A DNA stretch of 64,000 bases from an uncultured Gemmatimonadales bacterium. Its GTDB lineage: Bacteria; Gemmatimonadota; Gemmatimonadetes; Gemmatimonadales; GWC2-71-9. How positions within the stretch are numbered: position 1 is the stretch's first letter; each line of letters begins with the position of its first letter. A program made the translations under genes and the position numbers. This document shows, piece after piece, positions 4,453 through 45,860 of the stretch. Under the pieces are notes generated by a model. The model did not search any database. It saw nothing but the letters and a program-made list of their open reading frames with translations, and had not been told where the DNA came from. The stretch spans positions 999,848 through 1,063,847 of the forward strand of contig CAWFGP010000001.1 in the NCBI GenBank assembly GCA_963815515.1, written 5' to 3'.

Positions 4453-4484
4453 CCGCGGGGCTTCCTGCCTGTTAGACTTAGGGG

Positions 4485-12760: not shown

Positions 12761-12761
12761 C

Positions 12762-17198: not shown

Positions 17199-17295
17199 TG
17201 CGTGCCTGCCCGGCGATTACCCTCGACCGGAGTGTCAACCAACCGACTTCCGGGTATCCGGAGGCCGTGGGCGGAGCTGCCCGGGAGACCCCGAG

Positions 17296-18570: not shown

Positions 18571-18642
18571 TGCGCGAGTCGGCACAGGGCGCTCTCGTCC
18601 CGGCGACCTTCTAACCAGTGATCGCACTGCGCTGCTCGGGCA

Positions 18643-20699: not shown

Positions 20700-20870
20700 A
20701 TCAAACTTGCACAGCAAATTGTTACAATTGACTCTGCTAAAGTAGGTAATACACTTGTGCAATTGCGTTTACAAAACAGCCCACATACCAATCAACCTGG
20801 ACTGTCAAAAAACCTATGCTTTCGCAATTTTGGCGTGCATGCCGATATTCTTGAAGCCCAAGGGTGGACC
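20700..20870 (+). promoter_or_regulatory. AT-rich control region with CAATTG-core palindromes upstream of the lipoprotein gene
   Basis: This is a local GC trough in an otherwise GC-rich window. Perfect CAATTG occurs at 20725-20730 and 20760-20765 (the latter within GCAATTGC). Imperfect copies are GCAAATTG at 20714 and GCAATTTT at 20824. There is also an inverted TTGCAC / GTGCAA pair. Confidence 0.35.
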
Positions 20871-20918
20871 GGGAGGAAGCGCGCGGTTGGGCCCCTATCT
20901 AGATCGAAGGACCGAACC

Positions 20919-23123
20919 ATGACGTACACCTTCAAGCTTGCCCGGCGCCTGGCTCGATTCCGAATGGCGTCTGTGATCACCGGAGCCCTGTTGGCCGCAG
21001 CGTGTGCGGGCGACGAGGGCCTCAATGGCCCCGCGGCCGCGGGCGGCGATCCGGGCACCTCCGTGCTTACCATCCTACCCGACTCCACCACGGTCCGCAC
21101 CAGCGATACGGTGCAGTTCTCGGTTGGGGCCCTCGCCGAGGGCTCGGCGCTGTCCTTTTCGAAGGGGAGCGGCAAGGGCAAGGGCCGCGGCAAACCCCAA
21201 CCTGCCGGCATGACGGTCAGCCCTGGAACTGCGACGTTGATCTCGACCGGGGTGCAGCGCTTCGTGGCGATGGAGACCATGACAGACGGCTCCAGTTGGC
21301 AGCCCAGGGTCACCTGGACCGCCACCGGGGGAACCATCGACAGCACAGGCAAGTACGTCGCTGCGTCGACCCCCGGTGAATACCGTGTGGTGGCGGTCGC
21401 CGCAGACGGAATGGCCGATACCGCTACGGCAACGGTCGTCGCCGATACTCCGGTCCTGGCTCGGCTGGTGCTGAGCCCGGCGGTGGATACAGTGGCGACG
21501 GGCGGAAGGCAGCAGTTCACGGTCGTGGCCACCGCAGGCGATGGCTCTAGCATCGCAGTCGTTCCGACCTATACGGCCACGGGCGGTACCATCACCGCCG
21601 CGGGCGTCTACACTGCCGGCCAGACCGCGGGCACGTTCCGGGTCATTGCGCTCGACCCCGTCAGCAACCTGGCCGATACCGCAGCGGTGACAGTGACCGC
21701 CACGCTTCCGACGGTGCAGTCCGTCGTGCTGACGCCAGGGAGCGCCTCGCTCACGACTGGGGCCAAGCAGCAGTTCAACGCCTCGGCGAAGATGAGCGAC
21801 GGGACCACAAAAGCGATCAGCGCATCGTATTCCGCCACCGGCGGTTCGATCGCGGCCTCGGGTGAGTACACGGCGGGTAGCACCGCCGGGACGTTCCGGG
21901 TCATTGCGCTCGATCCCACCAGCAACCTGGCCGATACCGCAGCGGTGACAGTGACCGCCACGCTTCCGACGGTGCAGTCCGTCGTGCTGACGCCAGGGAG
22001 CGCCTCGCTCACGACTGGGGCCAAGCAGCAGTTCAACGCCTCGGCGAAGATGAGCGACGGGACCACAAAAGCGATCAGCGCATCGTATTCCGCCACCGGC
22101 GGTTCGATCGCGGCCTCGGGTGAGTACACGGCGGGTAGCACCGCCGGGACCTATCGCGTGATCGCGGCGGAATCCGGCGGCAAGGCCGACACGGCCGCTG
22201 TGACAATCACCACGATAACGCCACCACCCCCGTCGACCTCGGTGTGTGATGGGGCCCTGCGTACAGTGGCCGTCTCAACGGCGGGCGAGCTCACCACCGC
22301 AATCGGCAGCTCCCAGCCCGGCGACTGCATCCTGCTCGCGGCTGGCACGTACACGACGGGTACCATCCGGCAGAGCCGTGGCGGGACCGCGGCGAACCCG
22401 GTGACGGTGCGTGGGGCCGGGGGCTCGAGCATCGTGACCATGGGTGGCGGGTCCTGGCTTCCCCAAGCCCCGTATCTCCGGTTCGAGAACTTCCGTTTGA
22501 CGAACACCTTCTACGGGTTCTACTGCGGGGAAAGCGGAGCACCGGGCTGTCCATACGCGGTGTTCGACTCGATGGAAGTGGACCATGCCGCCCAGTCTGG
22601 CATCGCGCTGGAGAACGGCTCCAGCTTCTCCCAAGTTCTGCGCTCCAGGGTCCATGACACCGGAGTCAGCAGGGCAGTCTATGGCGAAGGGGTCTACGTC
22701 GGCGGATACGGAACTCCCACGACCGACGTGAAGGTGCTGAACAACACCTTCTACAATACCGGCGCCGAGGCCATCGATAACTCGGCCGGGGCGGACCGGA
22801 TGACTGCGACCGGCAACGTAATCGACGGCACCGGGACGGCGTTTATCGATGGCGGGACCGTGAGCCTGGTGGGCCTGCGGGGCAACAATGTCGTCTTCAG
22901 CAACAACACCCTCACCAAGGGCTCTCCGCACGGCATCGTGGTCTGGTCCGGTTCCGGCACCGTGCTCCGGGGCAACACGATTCATCTGTTCAACATCGAC
23001 AACTATCCCGCCCCGAAGGGGATCGACGCCTCTCGGGCATCGGGAACACAGGTCGGCTGCGACAACATCGTGACCGACGTTCCAAGCGGCGGCCTGGCCT
23101 ACACCGGGAGCTGCGCCCCATGA
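20919..23123 (+). CDS. Lipoprotein with five Big_2-like Ig domains and C-terminal right-handed beta-helix (pectate-lyase-fold) domain
   Basis: MTYTFKLARRLARFRMASVITGALLAAAC is a signal plus lipobox. Repeated units follow the pattern LxPxxxxLxxGxxxQFxA...YxxTGGxIxxxGxYTAG. The C-terminus has repeated GNxIxG / NNTxxxG turns. I prefer ATG 20919 with GAAGGA upstream. Confidence 0.8.
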   Translation: MTYTFKLARRLARFRMASVITGALLAAACAGDEGLNGPAAAGGDPGTSVLTILPDSTTVRTSDTVQFSVGALAEGSALSFSKGSGKGKGRGKPQPAGMTVSPGTATLISTGVQRFVAMETMTDGSSWQPRVTWTATGGTIDSTGKYVAASTPGEYRVVAVAADGMADTATATVVADTPVLARLVLSPAVDTVATGGRQQFTVVATAGDGSSIAVVPTYTATGGTITAAGVYTAGQTAGTFRVIALDPVSNLADTAAVTVTATLPTVQSVVLTPGSASLTTGAKQQFNASAKMSDGTTKAISASYSATGGSIAASGEYTAGSTAGTFRVIALDPTSNLADTAAVTVTATLPTVQSVVLTPGSASLTTGAKQQFNASAKMSDGTTKAISASYSATGGSIAASGEYTAGSTAGTYRVIAAESGGKADTAAVTITTITPPPPSTSVCDGALRTVAVSTAGELTTAIGSSQPGDCILLAAGTYTTGTIRQSRGGTAANPVTVRGAGGSSIVTMGGGSWLPQAPYLRFENFRLTNTFYGFYCGESGAPGCPYAVFDSMEVDHAAQSGIALENGSSFSQVLRSRVHDTGVSRAVYGEGVYVGGYGTPTTDVKVLNNTFYNTGAEAIDNSAGADRMTATGNVIDGTGTAFIDGGTVSLVGLRGNNVVFSNNTLTKGSPHGIVVWSGSGTVLRGNTIHLFNIDNYPAPKGIDASRASGTQVGCDNIVTDVPSGGLAYTGSCAP
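21633..22148 (+). repeat. Near-perfect tandem duplication, 2 x 258 bp (one Big_2 domain unit, 86 codons)
   Basis: 21633-21890 and 21891-22148 are identical except for 3 substitutions clustered in one hexamer (gaccccgtc versus gatcccacc). The duplication is in frame. Confidence 0.95.
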
Positions 23124-23163
23124 CGGCGACTAGCTGAAGGCTTAGATCGGCCAGGCGACATCT

Positions 23164-23207
23164 CGCAATCGGCGGCAGAATCCCCACGATCCTGCCGCCC
23201 GATTGCG
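23164..23207. terminator. Strong hairpin between convergent operon ends
   Basis: cgcaatcggcggcag - 13-nt loop - ctgccgcccgattgcg forms a 15-bp stem with a 1-nt bulge. It lies between the stop of 20919-23123 (+) and the stop of 23287-25489 (-). There is no U-tract. Confidence 0.45.
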
Positions 23208-23286
23208 TCGCGGCGCCCCAACTTGGTCGGCTTCGGATTGACCCCTTACCGGTTCCGCCGGGACCCCTCGCGTCCCACCGCCGACC

Positions 23287-25489
23287 TCACGGTTCGACTG
23301 ACCGCCCTTGGCGAATCGATTCCAACACGGCGAAGGTCAGCAACATGCTTTGACGCGATTGTACATACGGAAGGGGGTGGTCCCCCGCGCCCCGCAGGTA
23401 GGCGCCCCATGCCGACATCTCCTCGGCGTGACCCTTGCCGGCATAGGTTCGCTTGGTCTTCTTCCGGCCGCGATGGATGACCAGGGCTCGAAAATCAGAG
23501 ATTTCCGCGACGAAGCCGGCCCCATAGACCGTGCACTCCTCCTTCGGCCAGCTGGCATCACCTTCGGCCGCGTAGATCAGTTGTCCGCACGAGCCATCGG
23601 CGAATTCGACCTGCGCGGAAACGCTATCGGGGAAGGGCAGCCGCCCGCCGGGGGGCCAGGTACTCTGGGCAAGTACGCGCACGGGCCTCGAGTCGAAGAG
23701 AAAGCAGAAGTAGTCGAGGAAATGGCACGCCTCGCCGAGCACCCGTCCACCACTCTCTGCATAGTTGGCGTACCAGTGTTGTGGATCGAGCTTGCCGGGC
23801 ACCACGCGAAAGCTCGCCGTCTTCGGGCCTGGTGAGGACCGAAGGAGCCCCTTCAGCTCCGCACTGGCAGGTGCGAAGCGGCGATTGAACCCTACCTGGA
23901 CGGAGCCCGAGCTCGTCGTCACCGCGGCATCGATGTCGGCCAGTTCCTCTCGCGTCAGGCAGAGCGGCTTCTCGACGAACACATGCTGATTCGCCGCGAG
24001 GGCCTTGAGGACCAACGGGGCATGCAGATGGTGGCGAGTCGCAATGACGACGGCGGTGGGGGCGCTGCTTGCTGGCGCCGGGGGGGCCGGAAGCCGGCGG
24101 CTCGAACAGACCGGCCGCGTCGGTCGCCGCGCTCGAGAAGCCGAATTTCGTCTTTACATGGTTCGCACTGAGCGATGTGTTATTGACAACCACGCCAAGA
24201 GGAACCTGGCGCTTAAGATGGGGTAGCAGCATCGTGCGCGCGAAGTTCCCGGCTCCGATCACGTTCACGCGGCCGACGGCGGCCTGCAGCCTGGATGGAG
24301 CGGCACCCCGGGTGAGGTCCACCTGCGGCGGCTCGCTCGCCCGGAGGACCGCCGCCGATAACCTTGCGTCGGTCTCGTATTCCAGCACGACGCCCACGTC
24401 CTGCGAGTCCGGGGACAGCAAGGTGCGGTAGACGTCCAGCGCGGCGGTAAACGGCACCCGGCGCGTGGTGAGCGCCGCGAGGTCCAGGGCGCCCGTCTTC
24501 ATCAGGTGCAGGCACGCGTCGAAATTACGCTGTTCCGTCCACCGCACGTACCCGATGGGATAGTCCGTCCCGCCCCACTCGTACGCCGGCTCGTAGCGGC
24601 CGGGCCCATAGCTCCGCGCGTACCGGATGTCGATCTCCTTCTCGTAGGCGTACCGCCACAACAGTTCCACCTTCGTGTTCCCCACCACCACGATCCGCCC
24701 TCGATCACGCAACGCCTCGACGGCCAGCTCGGTAGGGGCATTGCTCTGCGTCCCCGTCGCGAGAATCACCGCGTCTACACCATACCCGTCGGTCCAGGCG
24801 TGCACCTGGTCGATGACGCTCCCATGGTCAGCGAGGAGAAAACTCTCGGCGCCCACCGCCCGGGCAAATGGCTCGCGTGCCGCGTCCAGGTCCACGGCCA
24901 TGACCCGAGCACCATCGGCTCGCAGGAGGCCCGTAACCAGCAGACCCACGAGGCCCTGTCCGATCACCAAGGCGCGCTCGCCCAGCGTGGGCTCCAACTG
25001 CCGGACCGTCTGCAAGGCGATGGAGACGATGGTAGTATAGGCCGCTTGCCAGTTCTCGACGCCGTCCGGCACGCCGGCCGCGAGCTTGTCCGGCACCGCA
25101 ATGTATTCAGCGTGGAAGGCGCACTCCGCCCCGCCACAGGCCACGCGGTCTCCCACCCGAAAGCGGGTGTTCTCCGTATCCACCGCGTCAACGACTCCCG
25201 CCGCACTGTAGCCTAGTGGGGTAGGCGACTCCAGCCGGTTCCTGACCTTCTCCGCCGTCGCTCTCCAGCCCAGCGTCCTGGCACTCTGGAGGACTTTCCG
25301 AACCTGGTCGGGTCGTGCCTTGGCTTTCTGCAGCAGGTTCATCTGCGCCTGCTCGACCTTCATTCTCTCAGTACCGGTGCTGATGACGGAATGCGTGACG
25401 CGCACGAGAATACCACCCGACGGTGCGGTTGGTTTGGGGACTTCCTGCAGCTCCAGCCGTCCATCCTGGTATTGCGCGATTTGCTTCAT
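23287..25489 (-). pseudogene. Bi-domain oxidoreductase (Zn-type alcohol dehydrogenase/MDR domain + Gfo/Idh/MocA domain), reading frame broken by a 1-nt excess in a G7/C7 tract
   Basis: Frame A (from ATG 25489) gives the MDR domain and the start of the Rossmann domain, VNVIGAGNFARTMLLPHL...FSSAATDAAGLFEPPASGPP, and then turns into Arg/Pro-rich nonsense. Frame B continues APTAVVIATRHHLHAPLVLKALAANQHVFVEKPLCLT...GFNRRF to the stop at 23287. The switch point is the homopolymer at 24080-24086. Removing one G restores a protein of about 733 aa. Confidence 0.8.
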
Positions 25490-27948
25490 GGGGACTCGGG
25501 CGTCGTATCGATCAGGGACTCGCCGGCGTTCCTGCCTTGCCGCTGGTCGAGGAAGGCCTGGAACACCTCAATGACCCTGGCAGTCGAGGACATGGTCCCG
25601 ACCGTCATTCGCACGTGTCGTCCATTGCGGAAATACCGGCTCCGATCGCGAAAGAAGATATGGCAGGCGGCAAAGTGATCGAGCAGCTCTTCGGGTCGAT
25701 CGATCTGGAAAAGAATGAAGTTCGCCCGTGAAGGAACACTGTCGATCCCTCGCGCGCGGAAGAAGTCTCCCAGGCGCCGCCGTGACTCCTCCACTTCGGC
25801 CACGTAGGCCCGCATCTCTCCACGATTCTCCAGCGCCGTCAGGGCCCCGATCTTGGCGAGCATAGTGACGCTCTTAGGGTTTACTACCCGGCGGAGCACC
25901 CGCGCCAGGTCGGGGCTGGCAAGCATGTAGCCGATTCGCAGGCCGGCCAGCCCGAATGCCTTGGAAAATGTCCGGAGGACGATGACGTTCGGCCAACTGG
26001 CCGTTAGGGGCGCCGCGGTCACGCCACAAAACTCAAAGTACGCTTCGTCCACCACGACGAGCACCTTCGACACGGCACAATGCCTGATGATTCCTTCCAC
26101 CTCTTCAGCCTCGAGCGCATAGCCGATCGGATTATTGGGGTTGTTCAGGTAGACCAGCCGTGGCGTTTCAAGGGTGATACGGCGACGGAACTCCTCCAGC
26201 GGGAACGGCGCCGAACCGTCGTAGGGGAAAAAGATCGACGTCGCGCCGTGCTGCTCTATGCTGGAGCGGAAGTTGTCGTAGGTGGGCTGCACGATCATGC
26301 ACCGGTCACCTGGCTTTGCGAAAGCGACCCCAAGTGCCTCGATCGCCGAATCCGAGCCGTGGGTAATGACGATGCTGTCCGCCGAAATGCCAGTATACGT
26401 ACTCAGCGCCTCGGTGAGCGCCGTGGACTCGGCAGCAGGGTACCAATTCAGGTACCGCGGCTCCGTTAATAGACCTTGCAGTACGCTGCGGATCCGTTCG
26501 CCCGCCGGGGTGGCGTCGGCTTCATTCCAGTCCAGCTTCAGGATCGGGAACCCGGAGTTCTCCGGCAGCCAAGCCTGCTGTGAAGAGATGATGTACTCCT
26601 CATGCTCCTCGACCCCCCTGCTGCCGCTGCGGCGCAGGATTGGCGCGGTCTTACCGTCGGCATTGGTGATGAACCGGTCGCTTATCTCGAGGTCCAGGCG
26701 CACGGCTCGCCCGAGCCGCATTTGGAGACCTTCCCTGAGAGAGGCGAGCACCGGCGCAGGATCGGTGATGTCCGGGCGCAGCACCAGCTTCACCACGACG
26801 TCGGAGAGCCCATACTGCACGATCTGGAACTTGAGCACCTGCTGGTGGTCTCGAAAGAGGGAGTAGAAGTTGACCGATGGCAGCCGGCGGCCGTCCGGCG
26901 TGACGATGCATTCGTCCTTCCGTCCAGCGACCGAGAGCACGAGCGGGGGGTACTGCTCCAGGGGGAAGAATCCATCCGCGGGCGCTCCCGCGCCCAGCCG
27001 AACGATGTCCCCGGTATCGTATCGAATGAACGGCATCACCGGGTTGTGGAAACTGGTGGCGACCAACCGGAATTCGCCCGCGGGAAGCTCGGGCGAGGGC
27101 AGGAACTCCGCGAAGCCATACTCCCAGTTGACCTCCATCCCGCTGTGTTCGGTGTTTTCCGTGATGACCAGCACCGGTTCCGTCATGCCGTACCAATCGA
27201 AGAGCTTTCGACCGAACGTCCGCTCGATCGTCGTCCGCTCGGTCGGTGTAAGGGTCTCGGATGCCGTGAAGAGACCCTGGATCCCCGTGAAGCGCTCGCG
27301 TACGGCATAAGCGTAATCGGCGAACACGCTCAGGGATGACGGATAACCGCGGACGAATCTGGGCTCGAACTCCAGGGCTCTCTCCACATAATGCTTCGCG
27401 TTCTGCGGCGTCAGATGATAGGCCGACATGAAGAGGCAATTCTGGCCCTTGTGCACGTACCAGAGCGGATCCCGCTCCGTCTTGGGTACGTAGCTCCGCA
27501 AGGCCATGAACTTGTCACGAAACCGATAACCCGCCTGGTTCCAATAGCGGAACATCGTTGCGTCGTCGAAGGCGACGTATCGCTCGTTCAACCTCATGCG
27601 AAGTGGCTCCCCGGTGGTGCCGCTGGTTTCGGCGGTCACGCTGCCGACCGCGAACCGATGGTCAAGCAGATCCGGACCTTGCCGGCGGACCACATCCTTC
27701 GTCAACAACGGCAGTCTGACCAGGCCCTCGAGACCCCGGAAATCCTTCCGTGGATCGAATCCTACAGCGTCGAATGCCGCTCGGTAATACCGGGTTCCTT
27801 CATACGCTCGCACGAGTGTCTGCCGGAGTTGTCTCAGGATGTACTCGCCCCGCCGTTCCGCGCTCCACGAGCGTGAATGGCGCAGGAAGGACCAGTTGAT
27901 CCAGAAGCCGTGCAGCTGGGCGATCGCCCGCACCTGGCGTTTACGCAT
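25486..27948 (-). CDS. Fusion protein: PaaK/CapK-type adenylate-forming enzyme / HisC-CobD-family PLP-dependent enzyme
   Basis: The N-terminal half has TAETSGTTGEPL, DWYGMTEP, IRYDTGDIV and GRKDECIVTPDGRRL (phenylacetate-CoA-ligase-like). The C-terminal half has ITHGSDSAIE, YLNNPNNPIG, VVVDEAYFEF and LRTFSKAFGLAGLRIGY (class II aminotransferase, PLP lysine). ATG 27948 overlaps the upstream gene's end by 8 nt. The stop overlaps the next start as ATGA. Confidence 0.85.
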   Translation of the reverse strand: MRKRQVRAIAQLHGFWINWSFLRHSRSWSAERRGEYILRQLRQTLVRAYEGTRYYRAAFDAVGFDPRKDFRGLEGLVRLPLLTKDVVRRQGPDLLDHRFAVGSVTAETSGTTGEPLRMRLNERYVAFDDATMFRYWNQAGYRFRDKFMALRSYVPKTERDPLWYVHKGQNCLFMSAYHLTPQNAKHYVERALEFEPRFVRGYPSSLSVFADYAYAVRERFTGIQGLFTASETLTPTERTTIERTFGRKLFDWYGMTEPVLVITENTEHSGMEVNWEYGFAEFLPSPELPAGEFRLVATSFHNPVMPFIRYDTGDIVRLGAGAPADGFFPLEQYPPLVLSVAGRKDECIVTPDGRRLPSVNFYSLFRDHQQVLKFQIVQYGLSDVVVKLVLRPDITDPAPVLASLREGLQMRLGRAVRLDLEISDRFITNADGKTAPILRRSGSRGVEEHEEYIISSQQAWLPENSGFPILKLDWNEADATPAGERIRSVLQGLLTEPRYLNWYPAAESTALTEALSTYTGISADSIVITHGSDSAIEALGVAFAKPGDRCMIVQPTYDNFRSSIEQHGATSIFFPYDGSAPFPLEEFRRRITLETPRLVYLNNPNNPIGYALEAEEVEGIIRHCAVSKVLVVVDEAYFEFCGVTAAPLTASWPNVIVLRTFSKAFGLAGLRIGYMLASPDLARVLRRVVNPKSVTMLAKIGALTALENRGEMRAYVAEVEESRRRLGDFFRARGIDSVPSRANFILFQIDRPEELLDHFAACHIFFRDRSRYFRNGRHVRMTVGTMSSTARVIEVFQAFLDQRQGRNAGESLIDTTPESP

Positions 27949-28744
27949 GCCGGTAGATCTCTTCCAGGACCGGCGGCGCCGACGCCCGGAGGTTGTTGCG
28001 GTAGAATCGGTACGCCTGCTTGGCCGCGGGCAGCAGCACATTCGGGAGCCTGAGGAACGGCCGGATCCGGTAATACAGTGGCGCGTACCGGCGCTCGTCC
28101 GATCCGGGAGACTGGTGAATGCCGCGCACCGCGAACGGAATCTCCCGTTTCAGCATCGCGCGGAGGCTCTCCTCCACTCCGCCGCGCAAGGCCAGCTCGC
28201 ACACACAGTGCGCCATGTCACTCTCGTAGTGAGCATCACTGCCGCCGAACAGCCCGACTGGCATCGACAGCAACGTCCGCGCTCGCTGGTTATCCACGAA
28301 TGACCCCTTCGCGTTGAACAGCTCGACTGCATCGATGCCGTCGACGTCGTCCCCGGTAGGCTGGACGACGGCCCTCAGAAGGCCGTCTTTGCGCCGAAAG
28401 GGGTGCGGCATCAGCGCCACGCCGCCCTGTTCGTGAATCTCGCGCACCGCATCCGGGCGCCGGGTCGACGTGATCCGATCATGAAGAAACAGGCCAATCA
28501 GATGGGAACCGTCCTCAAGGGTGCGCTCCTCTCCGATGATCAGATGCGGGCCCCGGCCAACAGCCTGCGCGTGGCGCTGGAACTCGCGAGCTCCTTCGAT
28601 CGTATCGTGGTCGGTGATGCACACGGCGTCGAGGCCGCGCCGCCGAGCGGTGCGGACCAGGCCATCGAACGTGATCAGACCATCCGAGGAGTGGACGGTG
28701 TGGCAGTGCATTTCCACGACGAGTCGATCGCGTCCGGCCATCAC
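27941..28744 (-). CDS. PHP-domain metal-dependent phosphoesterase
   Basis: VVEMHCHTVHSSDG...AVCITDHDT...ALMPHPF...GGSDAH are PHP His/Asp motifs. The start overlaps the upstream stop as GTGATG. Confidence 0.85.
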   Translation of the reverse strand: MMAGRDRLVVEMHCHTVHSSDGLITFDGLVRTARRRGLDAVCITDHDTIEGAREFQRHAQAVGRGPHLIIGEERTLEDGSHLIGLFLHDRITSTRRPDAVREIHEQGGVALMPHPFRRKDGLLRAVVQPTGDDVDGIDAVELFNAKGSFVDNQRARTLLSMPVGLFGGSDAHYESDMAHCVCELALRGGVEESLRAMLKREIPFAVRGIHQSPGSDERRYAPLYYRIRPFLRLPNVLLPAAKQAYRFYRNNLRASAPPVLEEIYRHA

Positions 28745-29937
28745 GGGGGGCCGGCCAGCGCGAGCGCATAGGCCTGGCGCAGTTGGGTCACCGATCTTTC
28801 CCAGCTCAACGGACCTTGGATGCGCTCCTGGCCGATCCGTCCCATCCGCGCGCGGCCCGTCGCATCGTCCAGCAATCGGGCGATGGCCTCGGCCAGCCGC
28901 TCGGCCGAGTTCTCGCCCACATAGGCAGCGGCCTCGCCCGCCGAAGCCCTGCCCTCCTTGAGATCGAACAGCACCTGCGGTTTGGCGAAAGTCATGTACT
29001 CCAGCACCTTGTTCATGGTGCAGTGGTCGTTATAGGAGTTGATCGGGTCGCAGGATACCCCCACGTCGATCGTCTGTAAGGCGGTGAACAGGAAGTCGTT
29101 GGTTACCCGCCCCGGCAAATCGACGTACTCCTGGAGGCCGAGGCGATCGCGCTGGGCCTGGAGGTTGGCATGTTCCGGCCCCGCACCCATCACCAGGAAT
29201 TGGACGTCCTTCCTCCCGGCCTCGTGAACGAGATACGCCGCGGCATCGATGAGGTAGTTGACGCCGTCCGCGTCACCCATCACCCCGATGTAGCCCGCCA
29301 GATAGGGGCGGCCCTTCTTGAGGCCGGGGTCGGGACGATATGCCGAGGCCACGATCGTGGGGGAGGTGCGCACGACGAACACTCGATCGTTCGGCTTCTG
29401 CCCACGATCGACTGCCATCTCCGCCACCGATTCGTTCGTCGCCAGCACCACGTCGGCACAGGCATACGTCAAACGCTCCGCCAAGCGTACCGCACGGTAG
29501 ACCAGTCCCCGCCTGCCAAACTTGGCCTCGAACATCTCGGGCCACAGATCGTGGACGTCATACACGACCTTCACCCGGAACAGCATCTTAAACGGCACCG
29601 CCACCAGGAAGAGCAGGTCCGGAGGATTGCACAGGTGGATTAACGTAAAGCGATGCCGACGCCAGGCCTTCCAGGCCAGGCACCACTCCCCCCATAGCGC
29701 GGAGGCGTACTCTCGCAGGAACCCGACGAATCCTCCCGCTTCTTCACTGATCCAGTGCCGATAGATCTGGATGCCATCGAGTACTTCCTCGGCTTGATTG
29801 AAACCGCGCATTTGCGGGCAGACGACGATCACCTGGTACCCAGCCTCACGAAGGGCACACGCCTCCTGCCAGACGCGGCGATCCAGAGGCACGGGGAGGT
29901 TCTCGACCAGGATGAGCACCGCTGGCTTAGCGCTCAT
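28741..29937 (-). CDS. Glycosyltransferase family 4 (WbuB-like)
   Basis: ILVENLPVPLDRRVWQEA...VYDVHDLWPE..., plus a C-terminal GT-B EX7E-type region (KVLEYM). It abuts the upstream stop (TGAATG). Confidence 0.8.
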   Translation of the reverse strand: MSAKPAVLILVENLPVPLDRRVWQEACALREAGYQVIVVCPQMRGFNQAEEVLDGIQIYRHWISEEAGGFVGFLREYASALWGEWCLAWKAWRRHRFTLIHLCNPPDLLFLVAVPFKMLFRVKVVYDVHDLWPEMFEAKFGRRGLVYRAVRLAERLTYACADVVLATNESVAEMAVDRGQKPNDRVFVVRTSPTIVASAYRPDPGLKKGRPYLAGYIGVMGDADGVNYLIDAAAYLVHEAGRKDVQFLVMGAGPEHANLQAQRDRLGLQEYVDLPGRVTNDFLFTALQTIDVGVSCDPINSYNDHCTMNKVLEYMTFAKPQVLFDLKEGRASAGEAAAYVGENSAERLAEAIARLLDDATGRARMGRIGQERIQGPLSWERSVTQLRQAYALALAGPP

Positions 29938-31239
29938 TCACCAGCACAGCCCTTGGTACCGTGTGGAGAGCTGTCGGAGCTCCGGCCATCCGTTCACGTC
30001 GATCACCTCGTGTCTCTCGGTCATGAGGGCCGCCAGCTCGTCAAGAGGCGCGCAGCGCTGGGTGGCGAGAACCACGCCTTGCTGCCCCAGCGCACTGGCA
30101 AGATCGGTGCAGAGAAGCGAGGCCAGGTGAGGCATCCGGGTGTCGATGACGCGCTTGTTCGCGCCAACTAGCGTCCCAAGGTTCAACGCGGGGTCATATA
30201 TCCGCACCTTGAAGCCGCGGCCCAGCAGCACCTGTGCCACCTCCACCATCGGGGCCTCCCGGAGGTCGTCTGTCTCCGCTTTGAAGGCCAGGCCGAGAAT
30301 GCAGATGTCGGTCTGCCCGGATTCGAGAATGAGTCCCAGCAGTTGCTGCAGGTGCTGGGCGTTGCTCGGCAGCAGGTTCTCTACCAGCGGCAGGCTTAGC
30401 CCGTGCATTCGGGCATGCTGCGTCAGCGCCCGCACGTCCTTTGGCAAGCAGGATCCACCGAACGGATTCCCCGGCTTCAGGTAGTACGCGGACACATTGA
30501 GCTTCGTATCGCGGCACACCAGGTCCATGACCTGGCGCGCATCCAGACCCATCTGCTTCCCCACACGTCCGATCTCGTTGGCAAACACGATCTTGGTCGC
30601 ATGGAACGCATTGCAGGCGTACTTGACCATCTCCGCGGTCGCCCAGTCGACGACCACAGTTCCCTCGCCGAAGAGATTGCGCACGAGGTCGGTGGGTGGC
30701 GCAGTGCCCTCCCGGACGCCAACAACACTCAATGACGGATTCAGAAAGTCGGCCACACCGGTGCCCTCACGGAGAAACTCCGGGTAATAGAACACCTCGA
30801 GTCTTCCGCCTCTCACCAAGTCACTCAAAAGATCATCGACCAGCCGCTTGGTGCTGCCCGGGAGCATCGTGCTGCGCAGGACCAGCACGTGCTTTCGGGA
30901 GGCTCTGCGCAAGGCATCGCCGATTTCTTGGGCCACCGCGCGCACAAAGCTGAGGTCCAGCTCCCCCGTCACTTTGGAAGGCGTTCCGACACACACTATC
31001 GAGAGGTCGGAGTCCCGGATGGCCTCATCCGCGTTTGTCGTCGCCCTCAGCAGGCCCTGGGACTTGGCGGCCTGGAGCAGCTGCTCCAGACCTGGCTCGA
31101 TGATCGGGGCGATTCCGGCGTTGAGGGCCGCGACCTTGGGCTCCTGGACGTCCACACCGATCACCGCGTGCCCCAATTTGGAGAGACACCCCACCGTTAC
31201 GGCGCCGACGTAGCCTAGTCCGAACACGCTGACGTTCAT
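29938..31239 (-). CDS. algD: Nucleotide-sugar 6-dehydrogenase, GDP-mannose 6-dehydrogenase (AlgD)-like
   Basis: MNVSVFGLGYVGAVTVGCLSKLGHAVIGVDV...PIIEPGLEQLL...CVGTPS...FGGSCLPKDVRAL...LAFKAETDDLREAP...GLCW. By recall it is collinear end to end with AlgD, including the terminal G(I/L)CW. Substrate assignment (GDP-Man versus UDP-sugar) is by similarity only. Confidence 0.8.
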   Translation of the reverse strand: MNVSVFGLGYVGAVTVGCLSKLGHAVIGVDVQEPKVAALNAGIAPIIEPGLEQLLQAAKSQGLLRATTNADEAIRDSDLSIVCVGTPSKVTGELDLSFVRAVAQEIGDALRRASRKHVLVLRSTMLPGSTKRLVDDLLSDLVRGGRLEVFYYPEFLREGTGVADFLNPSLSVVGVREGTAPPTDLVRNLFGEGTVVVDWATAEMVKYACNAFHATKIVFANEIGRVGKQMGLDARQVMDLVCRDTKLNVSAYYLKPGNPFGGSCLPKDVRALTQHARMHGLSLPLVENLLPSNAQHLQQLLGLILESGQTDICILGLAFKAETDDLREAPMVEVAQVLLGRGFKVRIYDPALNLGTLVGANKRVIDTRMPHLASLLCTDLASALGQQGVVLATQRCAPLDELAALMTERHEVIDVNGWPELRQLSTRYQGLCW

Positions 31240-33212
31240 GAGCGCGCAGAGCCGAAGAAGGTGGTGCGCAATACGGAGGCCGGCCCACGCATTGCGGGAG
31301 CCGTCAGCTTGAGACAGGGTGCTCGACAGATGACGCGAAAGGACGGAGAGACGAGCCCGTCCAGGAGCTGGCCGGCCACCTCGGCGGCCGGGCGGAGATG
31401 CACAGCGGAGACCGGAGAGACCAACTCAACCAGCTTCCAGTCGGAACTCACCTCGACAGCGGCCGTGACCCGGTTGAGACTTAGCGCGAACACTCGTTCG
31501 GACAGCTGTCGAACTTGCCAGCCCGGGGCGAACTGCCACCGCACTGTGAACGCCGCAGGGCGGTGGTCGATCCCAAGGCAGTCATCGTCCACCTGCCAGC
31601 CTGCACCATCCTCCAGGTCGACGATCCTCCGCCGCAGCTCGGTCTTCGGGAGATCGAGGGAGGCCATGGCCTCCCGCCCATCTGCCACAAGGGTTGGCCG
31701 ACGGTGGTGCTCGGCCCACAAAAAGGGTCCGAGGCGACGGGGCTGTTCTTCCCCTTGCGGACAAGGCGCATTGTGGGCGGCACGAGAGGCAAGCCATTCG
31801 CGTAGGCGGAGATCGCCATAGTATGCGCCCGTCCCGGGATCCACAACCAGCGCCTGGCCCTCCAGCCAGAGCGACAGATGAAGCGCATCCAGGTGGCCGT
31901 GCGCGGCGGTCGCCAGATACCCCAACGGGGAGAGATCCCACCGGAGCCGCCACGGACCAGCCTCACGAAGCGCGATCCCCGTGTCAGGATAGAGCCACCA
32001 GTCGCCGAGCGCGGTCGTATTCGGCGGCTGGGTCGGCGCGGAGTGTGCCACCGTCGCTGGTGCCTCACCCAGCCAATATTGCACCGCTCCGCGGATCTGC
32101 GGTCTGGTGAGCCATTCGTCCCAGTCCCTGACCGCATCCACCGCAAACAGGGGGGTCACGAAGGCGTCATCCGAATCGCCGTATTCCCAGGGCTCGGCCA
32201 CCGCCTGAACTCGCTGAAAGAATTGCGCCGCCGCAAGCAAGCGCTCGCGCACCGGCGGGGCGACATCGCTCCGAGCCGCTTGGAGTGCTCCCAGGGTCTG
32301 CCAGCACAGTTCGAACGAGAACAGGTGATAGTTGAGTGCCTGTTCCCTGTTTCCGCCGTCCGCTGCAAACTGGGCCAGGACCTGCTGCTCCCATAGGCGT
32401 TGCAGGTGAGCTAGGGGCGCCGCGAGTCGCGCAAGCGTCGGCCAGCGGGCAACTGCAATGACACAGCCAGCCAGCTCACCGAGCAGGTGGTTGTTCGCCG
32501 ACGACCCGAAGGACCGGTGTCGCCACGCATAGGACACGTGAGGTGGCAGCAGAGCAGCACGCAAGCTGGCCCAGCGCTCGCCTGCTCCTGGGCGCGACCC
32601 GGCCCGATCCCACCCCTCGCTGCCGGTCATCAAAGCATCCATCCAGGCAAACTGGGTCAGCCGGAGTCCTACCTCGAGCGCACTGGTCCAGTTCCAGCCC
32701 TTATAGGGAGGGTTGCACCGGACCCAATCCTCCAGCCATTCGATGCACTTCCACCCGGCGCGGGCGTCACGGAGCAGATAGCTCGCCATCGCCAGGCGGA
32801 CGAGCTGATTCCAGCGGCTCAGCTCCCAGATCAGCTTGACGTCTGCCCCGCCCGGCAGCGCCCGATAGTCGAGTCTGAAGGCTGAGACGTCGGTCGCAAG
32901 ATCCCGGCCCACAAGATGGTCGCGGTGCCACTGTGGCGGATCGTCGACGACGAGGTCCAGGTGCCCGAACGCCTTCCATCGCCCGGCGAGAATGTCCCCG
33001 ACATCCCGGCTCAGCGCTTCGAGCAGCGCTTGCGGTGCCGCCTCGCGTGCGGGCACCCGCGGGAACAGACCGGCACCTGCCGGCGGCAGCGGCTGGCTTT
33101 GCCAGCTGCGCCGCGCATCGTTGATCTGGCGGACTTTTCTTCGGCCATGCAGCGCGAGTTCGGCGGGGCTCATGGACCGCATCCGATGCCAGTACCAGTC
33201 AAGCCGCGCCAT
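31236..33212 (-). CDS. Heparinase II/III-like family protein (no signal peptide)
   Basis: WELSRWNQLVRLA...NPPYKGWNWTSALEVGLR...SANNHLLGELAG...GNREQALNYHLF...HGHLDALHLSLW...VVDPGTGAYY. The N-terminus MARLDWYWHRMRSMSPAEL is not a signal peptide. Confidence 0.8.
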   Translation of the reverse strand: MARLDWYWHRMRSMSPAELALHGRRKVRQINDARRSWQSQPLPPAGAGLFPRVPAREAAPQALLEALSRDVGDILAGRWKAFGHLDLVVDDPPQWHRDHLVGRDLATDVSAFRLDYRALPGGADVKLIWELSRWNQLVRLAMASYLLRDARAGWKCIEWLEDWVRCNPPYKGWNWTSALEVGLRLTQFAWMDALMTGSEGWDRAGSRPGAGERWASLRAALLPPHVSYAWRHRSFGSSANNHLLGELAGCVIAVARWPTLARLAAPLAHLQRLWEQQVLAQFAADGGNREQALNYHLFSFELCWQTLGALQAARSDVAPPVRERLLAAAQFFQRVQAVAEPWEYGDSDDAFVTPLFAVDAVRDWDEWLTRPQIRGAVQYWLGEAPATVAHSAPTQPPNTTALGDWWLYPDTGIALREAGPWRLRWDLSPLGYLATAAHGHLDALHLSLWLEGQALVVDPGTGAYYGDLRLREWLASRAAHNAPCPQGEEQPRRLGPFLWAEHHRRPTLVADGREAMASLDLPKTELRRRIVDLEDGAGWQVDDDCLGIDHRPAAFTVRWQFAPGWQVRQLSERVFALSLNRVTAAVEVSSDWKLVELVSPVSAVHLRPAAEVAGQLLDGLVSPSFRVICRAPCLKLTAPAMRGPASVLRTTFFGSARS

Positions 33213-34398
33213 ACGGTTCGCTTTGCGGGTGAGTTACGACAGCGCGGTAGATCTCCATCAGTCTCGCGTAGTTTCGCTCCCCGGAGTATCCGCGCTCGAA
33301 CTCATGCCGAGCGGCGCGCCCGAACGCCGCCCGGCCGTGAGCGTCCGCTACGGCCAGACGAATCTTGGCCGCCAAATCGGCCGGATCGCTAGCCTGAAAG
33401 TGCCACCCCGTCCGGCCGTCCTGCACCATCTCGGCGGCTGACCCCTCTCCGCTGACGATCACCGGCAATCCGGCAGCGTAGGCCTCGATGATGGTCATCG
33501 GGCAGTTTTCATAGCATTCCGAAGGGAACACGAGGAACGAAGCCGCCTTCATCTCTGCGAATACCCGCTCTTTCGGGAGGGGCCCCAGCCATTCTATTGA
33601 CGGCGAGGCGGATCTTACGTCCGGGATAGGACCGCCGATGATCTTGAGGCGACATGCCTGCCCCACCAGGTCCCAGGCCTTCTGCAGAACGCCGACACCT
33701 TTCTCCGGGGCGATTCTTCCCACATACAAGCCGAACTGTCCCGCGTGGTCGCCGGCGCCTGGGTCGGAGATCAGGAAGTTCGGCTTGACGAAGATCTTCG
33801 CGGCCGGCAGCCCGGCAGCGACGAACTTGCTCCGCGCAAATTCCGACAGGGCGATGTACGCCCCAACCGCCCGACGCCACGTGCCGATCAGCCGGTGCAG
33901 GCCCACCATGGTCGCGGTTACACCGCTGGCCCCGATGCTGCCGCGGTAACATGCATGCAAGACTCCCGGCCAGGCGAGGCGTTTGCCAAGACAGTCCTCG
34001 CAGACGTGACCGTCTCGGAACAGCACGCCGTTCACGCACGTCAGCCGAAAGTTGTGCAGCGACTGAACCACCGCGACCCCCTCCGCCCGAGCGGCATAGT
34101 AGGCCGACGGAGACACCAGCGGCTGGGTATTGTGGAAGTGCGCGACATCCGGCTGTTCGCGCCGGAATAAGGCACGCAGCTCGCGCTGCATGGCTCGGTT
34201 CCACACTGCAGTCGCCGCCAGTGTCACCCGCCCCATGTCCCTGATGCTATGGTTGTCCACGGTGAAGCGGACCACCGCGTGCCCCCGGCTCTCGAGCAGG
34301 TCGGTCTCCGCCCGAAATACCTCGTCTTCTCCTCCGGGCAATTGGTAGTGATTGTGCACCACCACCACCTTGAGCGGGGGCCGACTCAGGGTGTTCAC
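33199..34398 (-). CDS. Glycosyltransferase family 4
   Basis: KVVVVHNHYQLPGGEDEVF...GRIAPEKGV...FPSECYENCPMTIIEAYAAGLPVIVS. GTG 34398 overlaps the upstream stop (GTGA). The track extension to 34608 overlaps the upstream gene. Confidence 0.85.
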   Translation of the reverse strand: MNTLSRPPLKVVVVHNHYQLPGGEDEVFRAETDLLESRGHAVVRFTVDNHSIRDMGRVTLAATAVWNRAMQRELRALFRREQPDVAHFHNTQPLVSPSAYYAARAEGVAVVQSLHNFRLTCVNGVLFRDGHVCEDCLGKRLAWPGVLHACYRGSIGASGVTATMVGLHRLIGTWRRAVGAYIALSEFARSKFVAAGLPAAKIFVKPNFLISDPGAGDHAGQFGLYVGRIAPEKGVGVLQKAWDLVGQACRLKIIGGPIPDVRSASPSIEWLGPLPKERVFAEMKAASFLVFPSECYENCPMTIIEAYAAGLPVIVSGEGSAAEMVQDGRTGWHFQASDPADLAAKIRLAVADAHGRAAFGRAARHEFERGYSGERNYARLMEIYRAVVTHPQSEPYGAA

Positions 34399-37734: not shown

Positions 37735-37736
37735 CT

Positions 37737-39026: not shown

Positions 39027-39031
39027 GCCGG

Positions 39032-45795: not shown

Positions 45796-45860
45796 ACTTC
45801 CTCCAGGGCAAATGAACTGCCACCACGTCCGTCATGCCACTCGGGCCCGCGGCCGGGCCT

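Follow-up and report, generated by a model that had tools for sequence, protein, structure and literature searches.

Why should an exopolysaccharide operon carry a single protein in which a CapK/PaaK-type ligase is joined to a HisC-like PLP enzyme? The window, i.e. the whole stretch of 64,000 nucleotides that we analysed, comes from an uncultured Gemmatimonadales bacterium and holds such a gene within a set of four, which the original prediction had taken for a coupled cassette amidating a uronic acid. All four genes are indeed there, on the minus strand, and linked by the junctions that it had reported. From sequence comparisons, we give about an even chance to the reading that the module tailors a Wzx/Wzy exopolysaccharide by turning a uronic-acid residue into an amide that carries a small amino-alcohol, a reading in which we infer which amine is used, which sugar accepts it and in what sequence the steps occur.

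The set of four lies inside one Wzx/Wzy exopolysaccharide operon that runs on the minus strand from Wza to an oxidoreductase. The upstream part of this operon (34395-46505; Pfam assignments) encodes Wza, Wzc (43225-45795), a phosphoglycosyltransferase, two methyltransferases, a polysaccharide deacetylase, Wzx, a GT2, Wzy and a GT4 (GT4c). It is followed by another GT4 (GT4b, 33199-34608; Pfam GT4), the first of a seven-gene block kept across phyla, and by a heparinase-II/III-like protein of 658 aa (31236-33212; PF07940 at 79.5 bits, weak PF16889). Then come an AlgD-like GDP-mannose 6-dehydrogenase of 433 aa with three UDPG_MGDP_dh domains (29938-31239), a GT4 of 398 aa (GT4a, 28741-29937; Pfam Glyco_trans_4_4 and Glycos_transf_1), a PHP phosphoesterase (27941-28744; PF02811) and the fusion of 820 aa (25486-27948). 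The latter consists of an N-terminal CapK/PaaK-type ANL domain (26599-27948, residues 1 to about 450, with AMP-binding at residues 108-264) and a C-terminal HisC-like fold-type-I PLP domain (25486-26598, residues about 451-820, with Aminotran_1_2 at residues 494-794). A bi-domain oxidoreductase (23287-25489), ADH_zinc_N plus Gfo/Idh/MocA, closes the series; in the assembly it is frameshifted near 24050-24090, its halves lying on the ORFs 23624-25489 and 23287-24015.

Read from the sequence, the heparinase-like and AlgD-like genes meet in ATGA, the AlgD-like gene and GT4a in TGAATG, GT4a and the PHP gene in GTGATG with the TGA embedded, the PHP gene and the fusion in ATGCGTAA, which is an 8-nt overlap, and the fusion and the oxidoreductase again overlap by ATGA. 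The PHP protein has 267 aa if it starts at GTG 28744 and 266 aa if it starts at ATG 28741, the second being the form of the database protein P0121. The mechanical ORF of the fusion begins at 28041 and has 851 aa, but we place the start at ATG 27948 because the database protein identical to that of the window has 820 aa and homologues align from residue 1. Between 22900 and 31500 we found no promoter-like sites, and terminator-like sites in this interval were not above the shuffle expectation.

The fusion family is widespread: it gathers 311 matches, with more than 110 of the best 120 clusters full length, in Gemmatimonadota, Verrucomicrobiota, Acidobacteriota, Bacteroidota, Myxococcota and other phyla, and the predicted amidation module is found in many soil phyla; Prosthecobacter fusiformis and Pontibacter aquaedesilientis JH31 are among the carriers. 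Of 37 distinct related loci with upstream sequence, which come from at least seven phyla, 35 have the PHP gene immediately before the ligase, the two genes mostly overlapping or near-touching. The seven genes GT4b, heparinase-like gene, dehydrogenase, GT4a, PHP, fusion and oxidoreductase follow each other in this order in four other genomes, one more of the Gemmatimonadales, one of the Verrucomicrobiia and two of the Acidobacteriota (L001, L004, L018, L034). Given this adjacency and the recurrence of the seven-gene order across phyla, the arrangement is not due to chance. Two Myxococcota loci carry the fusion without an adjacent PHP gene, which counts against the amidation model. Distant CapK homologues (24-31% identity) also have oxidoreductase, dehydrogenase and heparinase-like genes as neighbours, but PHP and PLP genes are missing there; the order in Halorubrum (L061) is WecB, WecC-like, GT4, heparinase-like gene, oxidoreductase and CapK, and L056, L066 and L067 are similar. 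Hence, the ligase belongs with the uronic-acid block, and the PHP and PLP enzymes are an add-on pair. The stable core of the module is PHP, ligase and PLP enzyme, with the bi-domain oxidoreductase and a heparinase-II/III-like or VpsJ-like gene as usual extras. The functional unit is thus not the four genes, as had been proposed: these left out the oxidoreductase and included AlgD and GT4, which are exchangeable.

The AlgD-like protein matches TIGR03026 at 348 bits, above the cutoff, and its best match in the PDB is the AlgD of P. aeruginosa (1mfz, 386.7 bits over residues 1-433), whereas the best UDP-glucose dehydrogenase reaches 223 bits. Its full-length similarity above that to UDP-sugar dehydrogenases and its GGSCLPKD motif, the Cys of which we take to be the catalytic Cys of the family, identify it at the sequence level as a GDP-mannose 6-dehydrogenase. 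The gene identities given originally, including the name AlgD-like, were right. The enzyme is the predicted source of GDP-mannuronic acid, and GT4a, which is paired with it in L001, L004, L018, L021, L022, L025 and L034, is presumed to be the uronosyltransferase. Most fusion loci have a gene for uronate supply or transfer, either this pair or WecG with or without WecB. The sugar supply is exchangeable, with at least two kinds, the AlgD-GT4 pair and WecB/WecG. The flanks of four Verrucomicrobiota loci (L007, L008, L028, L081) contain no recognisable uronate dehydrogenase or WecG, and this speaks against the amidation model.

A VpsJ homologue (35% identity, E 1e-85) adjoins WecG in 12 distinct fusion loci, and heparinase-like and VpsJ-like genes alternate among fusion loci and never occur together. 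The heparinase-II/III-like protein, for which a sequence search of the PDB found no relative, might act in the block as a C5-epimerase or lyase of uronate. Within flanks of up to about 10 kb on each side of the ligase, 30 of 41 related loci have the oxidoreductase in intact form (about 720 aa), and it also adjoins the distant CapK homologues of L056, L061, L066 and L067. Such a near-constant enzyme has no set step in the amidation model, a further point against it.

The ligase domain scores 29.7 bits with PF00501, just under the cutoff of 29.9, and the database entry of identical sequence carries a precomputed PF27533 (CapK_C) domain. DVU_1553/PaaK-type models match the domain, and matches to the PaaK-family ligase models are all sub-threshold. 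The ANL motifs are kept up to the A10 lysine and are invariant in 22 homologues (TSGxTGxP at 108-115, YGMTEP at 253-258, TGD at 312-314, GRKD at 342-345 and DGK at 431-433). With these core motifs, the C-terminal catalytic lysine, CapK_C and a predicted fold close to PaaK, the domain falls in the PaaK/CapK branch of the ANL superfamily, and its nearest solved relatives are PaaK enzymes (E 2e-11 by sequence, TM about 0.6 by Foldseek on the predicted fold). Over its full length it is also homologous to the protein that occupies the VpsH position in a Pseudoalteromonas vps-like cluster (27% identity over 425 columns, E 2e-39), and it is against this protein that its homology to the VpsH type is judged. 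We predict from these similarities that the domain is a uronate-activating amidoligase. The earlier statement that CapK-type ligases are generally unassigned in capsule loci is no longer fully true, as VpsH is genetically needed for a glycine amide (PMC13463779).

The PLP domain belongs to the HisC/CobD group without being a typical member of either family. It scores 144 bits with PF00155, and HisC structures match it with a Foldseek TM of about 0.8. Its PLP lysine K663 (SKAFGLAGLR), D634 (pyridine-N), N606 (NPxNPxG), R671 and the arginine pair R767/R780, which align with R322 and R335 of the E. coli HisC, are invariant, as expected for this fold-type I group. Yet, it remains below the equivalog cutoffs of hisC (TIGR01141, 250.2 against 276.55) and of CobD (TIGR01140, 174.9 against 290.55). 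The arginine pair is also expected in an aminotransferase binding carboxylates and is therefore no proof of a phosphorylated substrate. Every fused PLP domain scores higher with HisC than with CobD (245-263 vs 160-189 bits). Five loci (L027, L029, L035, L036, L039) have, in place of the fused HisC-like domain, a separate PLP gene with the opposite preference (CobD 183-189 vs HisC 151-161 bits), its CobD scores being likewise below the equivalog cutoff, and the equivalents of R322 and R335 are kept in these partners too. The ligase domains of the five split loci belong to the same clade as the fused ones, with a median identity of 46%, as within the fused set, against 27% to distant CapK homologues. 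Neither half of the fusion has lost its catalytic residues in any of 22 homologues of 36-74% identity. The PLP domain is a predicted maker of an amine phosphate, and the alternation of HisC-like and CobD-like enzymes would, by analogy, represent the same pair of chemistries as Cj1437/Cj1436, both of which give amine phosphates.

The PHP protein is a member of its superfamily by its invariant HxH, DH, E, H, H and DxH (H12, H14, D20, D44, H45, E71, H80, H113, D169 and H171 in 27 homologues, residues of the metal-site type) and by a confident AF2 model (pLDDT 91.9) that matches PHP structures. Matches to the models for CehA/McbA, RNase RNM and pAp phosphatase are all sub-threshold, and the top Foldseek matches are RNase AM, BVU_3505 and TM0559. 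HisK structures (2yxo, 4gyf) come at rank 44-45 (E about 1e-2), and PRK06361 gives 18.6 bits, so that this is no HisK-type histidinol-phosphate phosphatase. CpsB/YwqE (3qy6) comes at rank 38 (E 1e-3, TM 0.42), behind RNase AM, TM0559 and the Pol III PHP domains, and the gene is linked to the ligase rather than to Wzc, which sets the protein apart from tyrosine phosphatases of that type. By sequence and fold the protein groups with TrpH/RNase AM, TM0559 and Cv1693, contrary to the histidinol-phosphatase type first put forward, and the analogy with the pair of HisC and a PHP histidinol-phosphatase is therefore only loose. The characterised proteins closest to it, such as RNase AM and Cv1693, a pAp phosphatase, belong to the nucleotide phosphoesterases, and none is an amino-alcohol or sugar phosphatase, which weakens the amidation model.

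How could these enzymes work together? Family membership and gene pairing suggest that the AlgD-like enzyme would make GDP-mannuronic acid, to be transferred by the adjacent GT4. More speculatively, the heparinase-like protein and the oxidoreductase might first rework the residue, e.g. by epimerising it at C5 into a gulo-uronic acid, a reaction that has been proposed for VpsJ. In the fusion, the HisC-like domain could transaminate a keto-phosphate, most simply dihydroxyacetone phosphate (DHAP) to serinol phosphate; the CobD-like enzyme of the split variant could instead form ethanolamine phosphate or aminopropanol phosphate by decarboxylating a phospho-amino acid. From its ANL motifs and its VpsH-type homology, the CapK/PaaK-type domain would adenylate the C6 carboxylate of the uronic acid and couple the amine with release of AMP. 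The PHP protein, judging from gene linkage and superfamily, may remove the phosphate, either after ligation, as Cj1435 does, or before. The uronamide originally predicted thus survives in part: the linkage of PHP and ligase, the exchange of HisC-like for CobD-like enzymes, the similar blocks around distant CapK homologues and the homology to the VpsH type support it, whereas the type of PHP enzyme and the unit of four genes had to be given up; the chemistry is what we infer.

Some of these observations might be read otherwise. A free amino acid might amidate the uronic acid through the CapK domain, as with VpsH, and the HisC-like domain and the PHP protein might serve other ends, such as making or recycling a different precursor, or regulation. 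Glycine is used in the VpsH precedent (PMC13463779), archaeal ManNAcA6Thr glycans exist in the literature, and distant CapK homologues operate without PLP or PHP partners. We nevertheless find this unlikely, since it leaves unexplained the fusion kept in more than 100 clusters with intact PLP residues, the near-obligate PHP neighbour and the swap from HisC-like to CobD-like enzymes with the PHP gene retained. It is also quite unlikely that the module N-acylates an amino sugar. The Gfo/Idh/MocA half would then give a keto sugar, as WbpB does, the HisC-like domain would aminate it, CapK would attach an activated small acid, and PHP would dephosphorylate the acyl group or a sugar phosphate. This would account for an oxidoreductase that almost always adjoins the module and whose gene overlaps the fusion; the window operon has no DegT-type sugar aminotransferase, and N-acylated diamino-uronic acids occur in related glycans according to the literature. 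But blocks of CapK and oxidoreductase occur with no aminotransferase in the block (Halorubrum L061), and the five loci with a decarboxylase-type CobD-like partner, unable to aminate a keto sugar, still have the oxidoreductase (L029, L035) and PHP (L027, L029, L035) wherever sequence reaches. To our knowledge, no HisC-family enzyme is known to act on nucleotide sugars, which is a further difficulty. The VpsH precedent, for its part, favours amidation of a carboxylate (PMC13463779).

The remaining alternatives detach one component or all of them from the glycan. We regard it as very improbable that the PHP protein is a phosphatase of the Wzc phosphotyrosine, like the Gram-positive CpsB/YwqE, and unconnected to the fusion. 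CpsB enzymes are of the PHP family, the operon encodes a Wzc, and there is no LMW-PTP among the genes scanned; yet PHP tracks the ligase, with Wzc within the flanks in only three of the loci used for this linkage, and besides the distant rank of CpsB/YwqE in fold there is no CpsB sequence match for this protein in the PDB. Finally, a housekeeping HisC and a phenylacetate-type CoA ligase might have become fused in an ordinary or chance arrangement with no role in polysaccharides, and the database names, histidinol-phosphate aminotransferase or phenylacetate-CoA ligase, would suggest as much. This is hardly credible when both halves miss the equivalog or family thresholds, the fusion lies in glycan loci wherever flanking sequence is adequate, and synteny extends across phyla.

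The amidation reading finds its closest relative in ligase type in V. cholerae, where genetics shows that L-GulNAcA in the lipid-linked disaccharide does not receive its C6 glycine amide without VpsH (PMC13463779, mBio, July 2026). The tailoring module of VPS comprises VpsA/VpsB/VpsK (= WecB/WecC/WecG), VpsJ and VpsH (PMC13463779). Both loci are of the Wzx/Wzy exopolysaccharide type, with genes to supply and transfer a manno-uronic acid and one for a PaaK/CapK-like protein; the window ligase matches, from end to end, the protein in the VpsH position of a syntenic vps-like cluster, and many fusion loci have VpsJ homologues and WecG/WecB. In contrast, VpsH is a stand-alone protein and its substituent is glycine, a free amino acid, whereas ligases of the window type are fused to, or precede, a PLP enzyme of the HisC/CobD family and have PHP upstream. 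The window also differs in its AlgD-like and GT4 supply, in the heparinase-II/III-like protein in the slot of VpsJ, in the extra bi-domain oxidoreductase and in the low identity (27%) of its ligase to the VpsH type, a value that also speaks against the amidation model. The PLP domain shares with HisC and CobD the fold, the PLP-binding residues and the arginine pair, but it scores below both equivalogs, is fused to a ligase and is found in glycan loci. The PaaK phenylacetate-CoA ligases and the coenzyme F390 synthetase family share the ANL fold and motifs with the window ligase, and PaaK is its nearest solved structure, but sequence similarity is very low and the context here is a polysaccharide locus, with no genes for aromatic-acid catabolism or CoA-dependent functions in the operon or the neighbouring genes scanned.

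The closest parallel in logic is the HS:2 capsule of C. jejuni, where Cj1437/Cj1436, of the HisC/CobD family, make serinol phosphate or ethanolamine phosphate (PMC11800397, Raushel laboratory). There, in an ATP-dependent reaction, the C-domain of Cj1438 amidates a uronic acid on its C6 carboxylate once it is part of the glycan, and Cj1435 then removes the phosphate (PMC11800397). Compared by described chemistry, the HisC-like/CobD-like alternation parallels Cj1437/Cj1436. Yet the ligase here is of the AMP-forming ANL/CapK type instead of ATP-grasp and the phosphatase PHP instead of HAD, which makes the module an analogue of the Cj1435-Cj1438 glucuronamide system and not a member of it. Moreover, ligase and PLP enzyme here form one polypeptide, the predicted sugar derives from ManA (AlgD-like) instead of GlcA, and the locus is of the Wzx/Wzy type instead of ABC-transporter dependent. 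If the amidation reading is true, the module would have come to parallel Cj1435-Cj1438 by convergence, with a ligase of the VpsH type as its base.

The minus strand of the window carries a long Wzx/Wzy exopolysaccharide operon, which runs from Wza (45861-46505) to a bi-domain oxidoreductase with ADH_zinc_N and Gfo/Idh/MocA domains (23287-25489). Between these two lie, on the same strand, Wzc (43225-45795), a phosphoglycosyltransferase (41637-43259), two methyltransferases (39958-41665), a polysaccharide deacetylase (39032-40087), Wzx (37737-39209), a GT2 (36820-37821), Wzy (35498-36982), the GT4 glycosyltransferases GT4c and GT4b (33199-35507) and a heparinase-II/III-like protein (31236-33212). 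They are followed by a block of four genes encoding an AlgD-like NDP-sugar 6-dehydrogenase (29938-31239), the glycosyltransferase GT4a (28741-29937), a PHP-family phosphoesterase (27941-28744) and a protein fusing an ANL ligase to a PLP domain (25486-27948). The original prediction described these four genes as translationally coupled, and every junction it named was found as written when read from the sequence. The block is joined to the flanking genes on either side by the same ATGA overlap. The true start of the fusion is the ATG at 27948 (820 aa), rather than the mechanical ORF start at 28041, because an identical database protein and the homologues begin there. We found no promoter-like site in 22900-31500, and terminator-like sites were not above shuffle expectation. 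A plus-strand ORF of 1185 aa antisense to Wzc (42403-45960), of a kind typical of high-GC genomes and with no Pfam or family match, was treated as spurious.

The window is high in G+C, the locus standing at about 65% and the flanks at 70-72%. Across the polysaccharide region (about 4000-47000) the values range from 0.62 to 0.68, with a minimum at 26-28 kb over the fusion, against 0.70-0.72 in the flanks, a pattern that fits horizontal exchange of the locus. The window also encodes a WecB-like 2-epimerase (3373-4509, minus strand) and, on the plus strand, an amine-oxidase-like flavoprotein with a polysaccharide deacetylase immediately downstream (11246-13748), a second such flavoprotein (15693-17198) and membrane glycosyltransferases of the GT87/PMT type (17146-20247). 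The flavoprotein-deacetylase pair recurs at the end of a Ferruginibacter fusion locus (L083, 20239-22388). Converging on the operon end is a plus-strand gene (20757-23123) for a secreted-looking protein with Big_2-like repeats, a right-handed beta-helix and a weak chondroitinase-B match; a 258-bp unit occurs twice within it, in tandem and at 98% identity (21624-22150), and a homologue lies near the related locus L001. By analogy with RbmB, the beta-helix lyase that grips the glycine amide of the Vibrio cholerae polysaccharide VPS, its product may serve as a depolymerase or lyase dedicated to the exopolysaccharide of this operon.

The dehydrogenase has as its best solved relative the P. aeruginosa GDP-mannose 6-dehydrogenase, over the full length and with 386.7 bits, against 223 bits for the best UDP-glucose dehydrogenase. 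The N-terminal half of the fusion is a PaaK/CapK-type adenylating domain, in which all ANL core motifs are invariant among 22 homologues. The C-terminal half is a HisC-like fold-type-I PLP domain retaining the Schiff-base lysine K663, D634, N606 and R671. Also retained are R767 and R780, aligned to R322 and R335 of E. coli HisC, which in that enzyme grip the phosphate and carboxylate of the substrate; this arginine pair alone is no proof of a phosphorylated substrate. The domain scored 250.2 against the HisC model (cutoff 276.55) and 174.9 against that of CobD (cutoff 290.55). It lies below both curated cutoffs and is therefore neither HisC proper nor CobD proper. In the PHP protein, the characteristic metal-site residues of the PHP family are unchanged in 27 homologues, and the predicted model is confident (pLDDT 91.9). 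A fold search placed this model nearest to RNase AM/TrpH, BVU_3505, TM0559, PsfC and Cv1693; the CpsB/YwqE tyrosine phosphatases came at rank 38 and the HisK histidinol-phosphate phosphatases at ranks 44-45, both far weaker. An enzyme of HisK or CpsB type was thus ruled out by sequence and by fold. The substrates of the characterised relatives are nucleotides. Hence, the parallel originally drawn with HisC and a PHP-type histidinol-phosphatase is only a loose one.

The fusion family is large: it gave 311 matches, and more than 110 of the 120 best clusters were full length, at 36-87% identity. Scanning one genome per species yielded some 40 loci with the fusion or with a split form, in Gemmatimonadota, Verrucomicrobiota, Acidobacteriota, Bacteroidota, Myxococcota, Elusimicrobia and Methylomirabilota, onto which the window proteins were mapped. 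The nearest to the window fusion belongs to a Gemmatimonadales MAG (75% identity). A search of plasmids for a fused homologue gave no match spanning both domains. In five loci (L027, L029, L035, L036 and L039) the ligase is unfused and followed by a separate class-I/II PLP gene, and the identity of the partner changes with this arrangement. The five separate PLP proteins match CobD better than HisC (183-189 versus 151-161 bits), whereas all fused PLP domains tested match HisC better than CobD (245-263 versus 160-189 bits). The ligase domains of the two types nonetheless form one clade: the median identity between types is 46%, equal to that within the fused set, as against 27% to more distant CapK homologues. 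The split-type loci keep the PHP gene wherever upstream sequence exists, and the arginine pair is retained in HisC-like and CobD-like partners alike. As judged from these sequences, the HisC-like partner is probably a transaminase, the CobD-like one a decarboxylase; the family to which they belong acts on phosphorylated substrates.

The more distant CapK homologues (24-31% identity) sit in a comparable sugar block that has neither PHP nor PLP genes. In Halorubrum the order is WecB, a WecC-like protein, a GT4, a heparinase-like protein, the oxidoreductase and CapK, and it is similar in L056, L066 and L067. In a SAR86 locus, CapK, PHP, a HisC-like protein and the oxidoreductase are all separate genes. 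CapK blocks devoid of PHP and PLP genes indicate that the ligase belongs with the uronic-acid block and that PHP and PLP are an add-on pair. Most fusion loci encode the supply or transfer of a manno-uronic acid, either by an AlgD-like protein with GT4a, as in the window, or by WecG with or without WecB; the examined flanks of some Verrucomicrobiota loci held no uronate-forming gene. Two or three CapK-like paralogues stand in tandem in loci from Phycisphaerae, Ignavibacteriales and Anaerohalosphaeraceae (L050, 8475-12799; L080, 9812-14019; L048), a hint that a single glycan may bear several kinds of amide.

Of 41 loci, 30 have the bi-domain oxidoreductase together with the ligase, and those lacking it are mostly short contigs. 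It occurs with both PLP types and so is not tied to a transaminase in particular. In the window its gene is broken by a single frameshift near 24050-24090, between '...ATDAAGLFE' and 'AVVIATRHHLHAP...', into ORFs 23624-25489 and 23287-24015. Orthologues are intact at about 720 aa, although L001, L021 and L031, whose record names all carry MFD isolate prefixes, show the same gene split. Since we take these to be long-read MAGs, the break probably reflects a sequencing indel rather than a pseudogene. Beside the module in fusion loci (L001-L040, L081-L083), a heparinase-like gene and one resembling V. cholerae VpsJ (about 390 aa, mostly adjoining WecG) stand in for each other and are never found together. 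The heparinase-like protein may thus fill the slot of the C5 epimerase proposed for VpsJ, an idea based on mutual exclusivity, since BLASTP found no similarity between a VpsJ-position protein and the heparinase-like protein of the window. A PDB sequence search with the latter gave no match, and searches of the literature on CapK and on a cassette of oxidoreductase, heparinase and asparagine synthase returned nothing relevant.

What the PHP protein and the fusion do can also be read otherwise. The PHP protein might be the phosphotyrosine phosphatase of Wzc, a role that the original prediction had named as its possible sole activity. Yet the ligase gene has it as its direct upstream neighbour in 35 of the 37 distinct loci with upstream sequence, and Wzc is found within the examined flanks of only three of the mapped loci. 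The PHP protein therefore travels with the ligase, not with the kinase, and synteny and fold both contradict this reading. In the two exceptions, both in Myxococcota, the fusion is at the cluster edge, and a search for a non-orthologous phosphatase upstream of it met unrelated genes, for a DNA ligase and a VWA protein. The fusion might also be a housekeeping chimera of HisC and PaaK, but its sub-threshold scores and its genomic context contradict this. The module proteins are not HisC, CobD, a HisK phosphatase or CpsB.

Two other readings keep CapK in the polysaccharide pathway. CapK could N-acylate an amino sugar made by the oxidoreductase and the HisC-like domain. Two findings count against this: the enzyme of the CobD-type variant is unable to aminate a keto sugar, and there are blocks where CapK and the oxidoreductase occur without an aminotransferase. 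Alternatively, CapK could amidate with a free amino acid while PLP and PHP serve something else, but this leaves the conserved fusion, the partner swap and the PHP linkage without account. We favour an amidation pathway in which CapK, PLP and PHP all take part. The AlgD-like enzyme would make GDP-ManA, whose residue GT4a would transfer and which the heparinase-like protein and the oxidoreductase might rework, perhaps through the C5 epimerisation suggested for VpsJ. The HisC-like domain would convert a keto-phosphate into an amine phosphate, in the simplest case DHAP into serinol phosphate. The CapK domain, judging from its motifs and its homology to the VpsH type, would adenylate the uronate carboxylate and join the amine; the PHP protein, from its linkage and superfamily, would take off the phosphate before or after ligation. 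We hold this whole scheme, read from sequence, to be evenly balanced between right and wrong; that the ligase amidates a uronic acid is the narrower claim and a probable one.

More tentatively, and with slightly less than even confidence, we propose a widespread three-enzyme module, composed of PHP, an ANL amidoligase of the VpsH type and a PLP enzyme, either HisC-like and fused or CobD-like and adjacent, that would install amino-alcohol amides on manno- or gulo-uronic acids of exopolysaccharides, in convergence with Campylobacter. The amine would be serinol, ethanolamine or aminopropanol, and the module would occur in Gemmatimonadota, Verrucomicrobiota, Acidobacteriota, Bacteroidota and others. 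Amide decoration cancels the negative charge of uronic acids and so changes how capsules and biofilm matrices bind cations, proteins, phages and lyases. If true, the proposal would assign a role to hundreds of genes currently labelled histidinol-phosphate aminotransferase or phenylacetate-CoA ligase, setting right a systematic annotation error in soil phyla that are abundant and poorly cultured. It would also provide a ligase physically fused to the maker of its own amine, a one-polypeptide natural system for studying this chemistry. The literature searched describes neither such a fusion nor its PHP partner nor the HisC/CobD alternation. The fusion has cultured carriers, Prosthecobacter fusiformis and Pontibacter aquaedesilientis JH31, and the amidation prediction is therefore directly testable.

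Among archaea, the threonine-attaching AglU of M. maripaludis may be PaaK-like, a lead on which text searches of the literature found nothing. The archaeal glycan structure ManNAcA6Thr is confirmed in the literature. In a Firmicutes MAG (L056, 5000-11245), a HisF-like gene lies two genes upstream of the CapK-like one, which is followed by the oxidoreductase and then by heparinase-like, GT4 and dehydrogenase genes. We take this layout to resemble the aglXYZ-aglU arrangement of M. maripaludis for ManNAc3NAmA6Thr.

Evidence exists for only two ligase solutions to uronic-acid amides: ATP-grasp, in C. jejuni and, according to one paper, in E. coli K40, and the CapK-like VpsH, added in July 2026. 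In V. cholerae, ManNAcA is supplied and transferred by VpsA, VpsB and VpsK, VpsJ is a proposed C5 epimerase yielding L-GulNAcA, and the C6 glycine amide of the lipid-linked disaccharide depends on the PaaK/CapK-like VpsH (mBio, July 2026; PMC13463779). The original statement that CapK-type ligases are generally unassigned in capsule loci is thus no longer fully true, as VpsH now supplies a role. The comparison was made through Pseudoalteromonas sp. THAF3, whose plasmid pTHAF3_a carries a vps-like cluster in the V. cholerae gene order (NZ_CP045419.1, 108934-128145; L084). This cluster is complete, lies on an 801-kb plasmid or chromid and bears NCBI names such as 'VpsD family' and 'VpsF family'; its VpsJ-position gene is named 'aspartate-semialdehyde dehydrogenase' and has no Pfam match. 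The window ligase domain aligns with its VpsH-position protein over 425 columns (27% identity, E 2e-39), with all motifs common to both, and is thus a relative of the VpsH type. The VpsJ-position protein, for its part, matches the gene after the oxidoreductase in the Ferruginibacter fusion locus (35% identity, E 1e-85). If the proposal is true, the VpsH type extends to amines other than amino acids, and the module shows how the amine is supplied and trimmed.

In the C. jejuni HS:2 capsule, Cj1437 makes serinol phosphate from DHAP and Cj1436 makes ethanolamine phosphate from phosphoserine; the ATP-grasp C-domain of Cj1438 then amidates GlcA already in the chain, and the HAD phosphatase Cj1435 takes off the phosphate (PMC11800397). 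The original prediction had cited this chemistry accurately, and it rightly noted that the folds differ, the ligase here being ANL/CapK-type instead of ATP-grasp and the phosphatase PHP instead of HAD. Because of these differences, the module is not a member of the Cj1435-Cj1438 system. If the proposal is true, the module would have reinvented the glucuronamide pathway of Campylobacter by convergence. The proposed logic is common to both, from amine phosphate through ATP-dependent amidation to dephosphorylation, and the alternation of HisC-like and CobD-like partners matches exactly the pair found in the HS:2 capsule.
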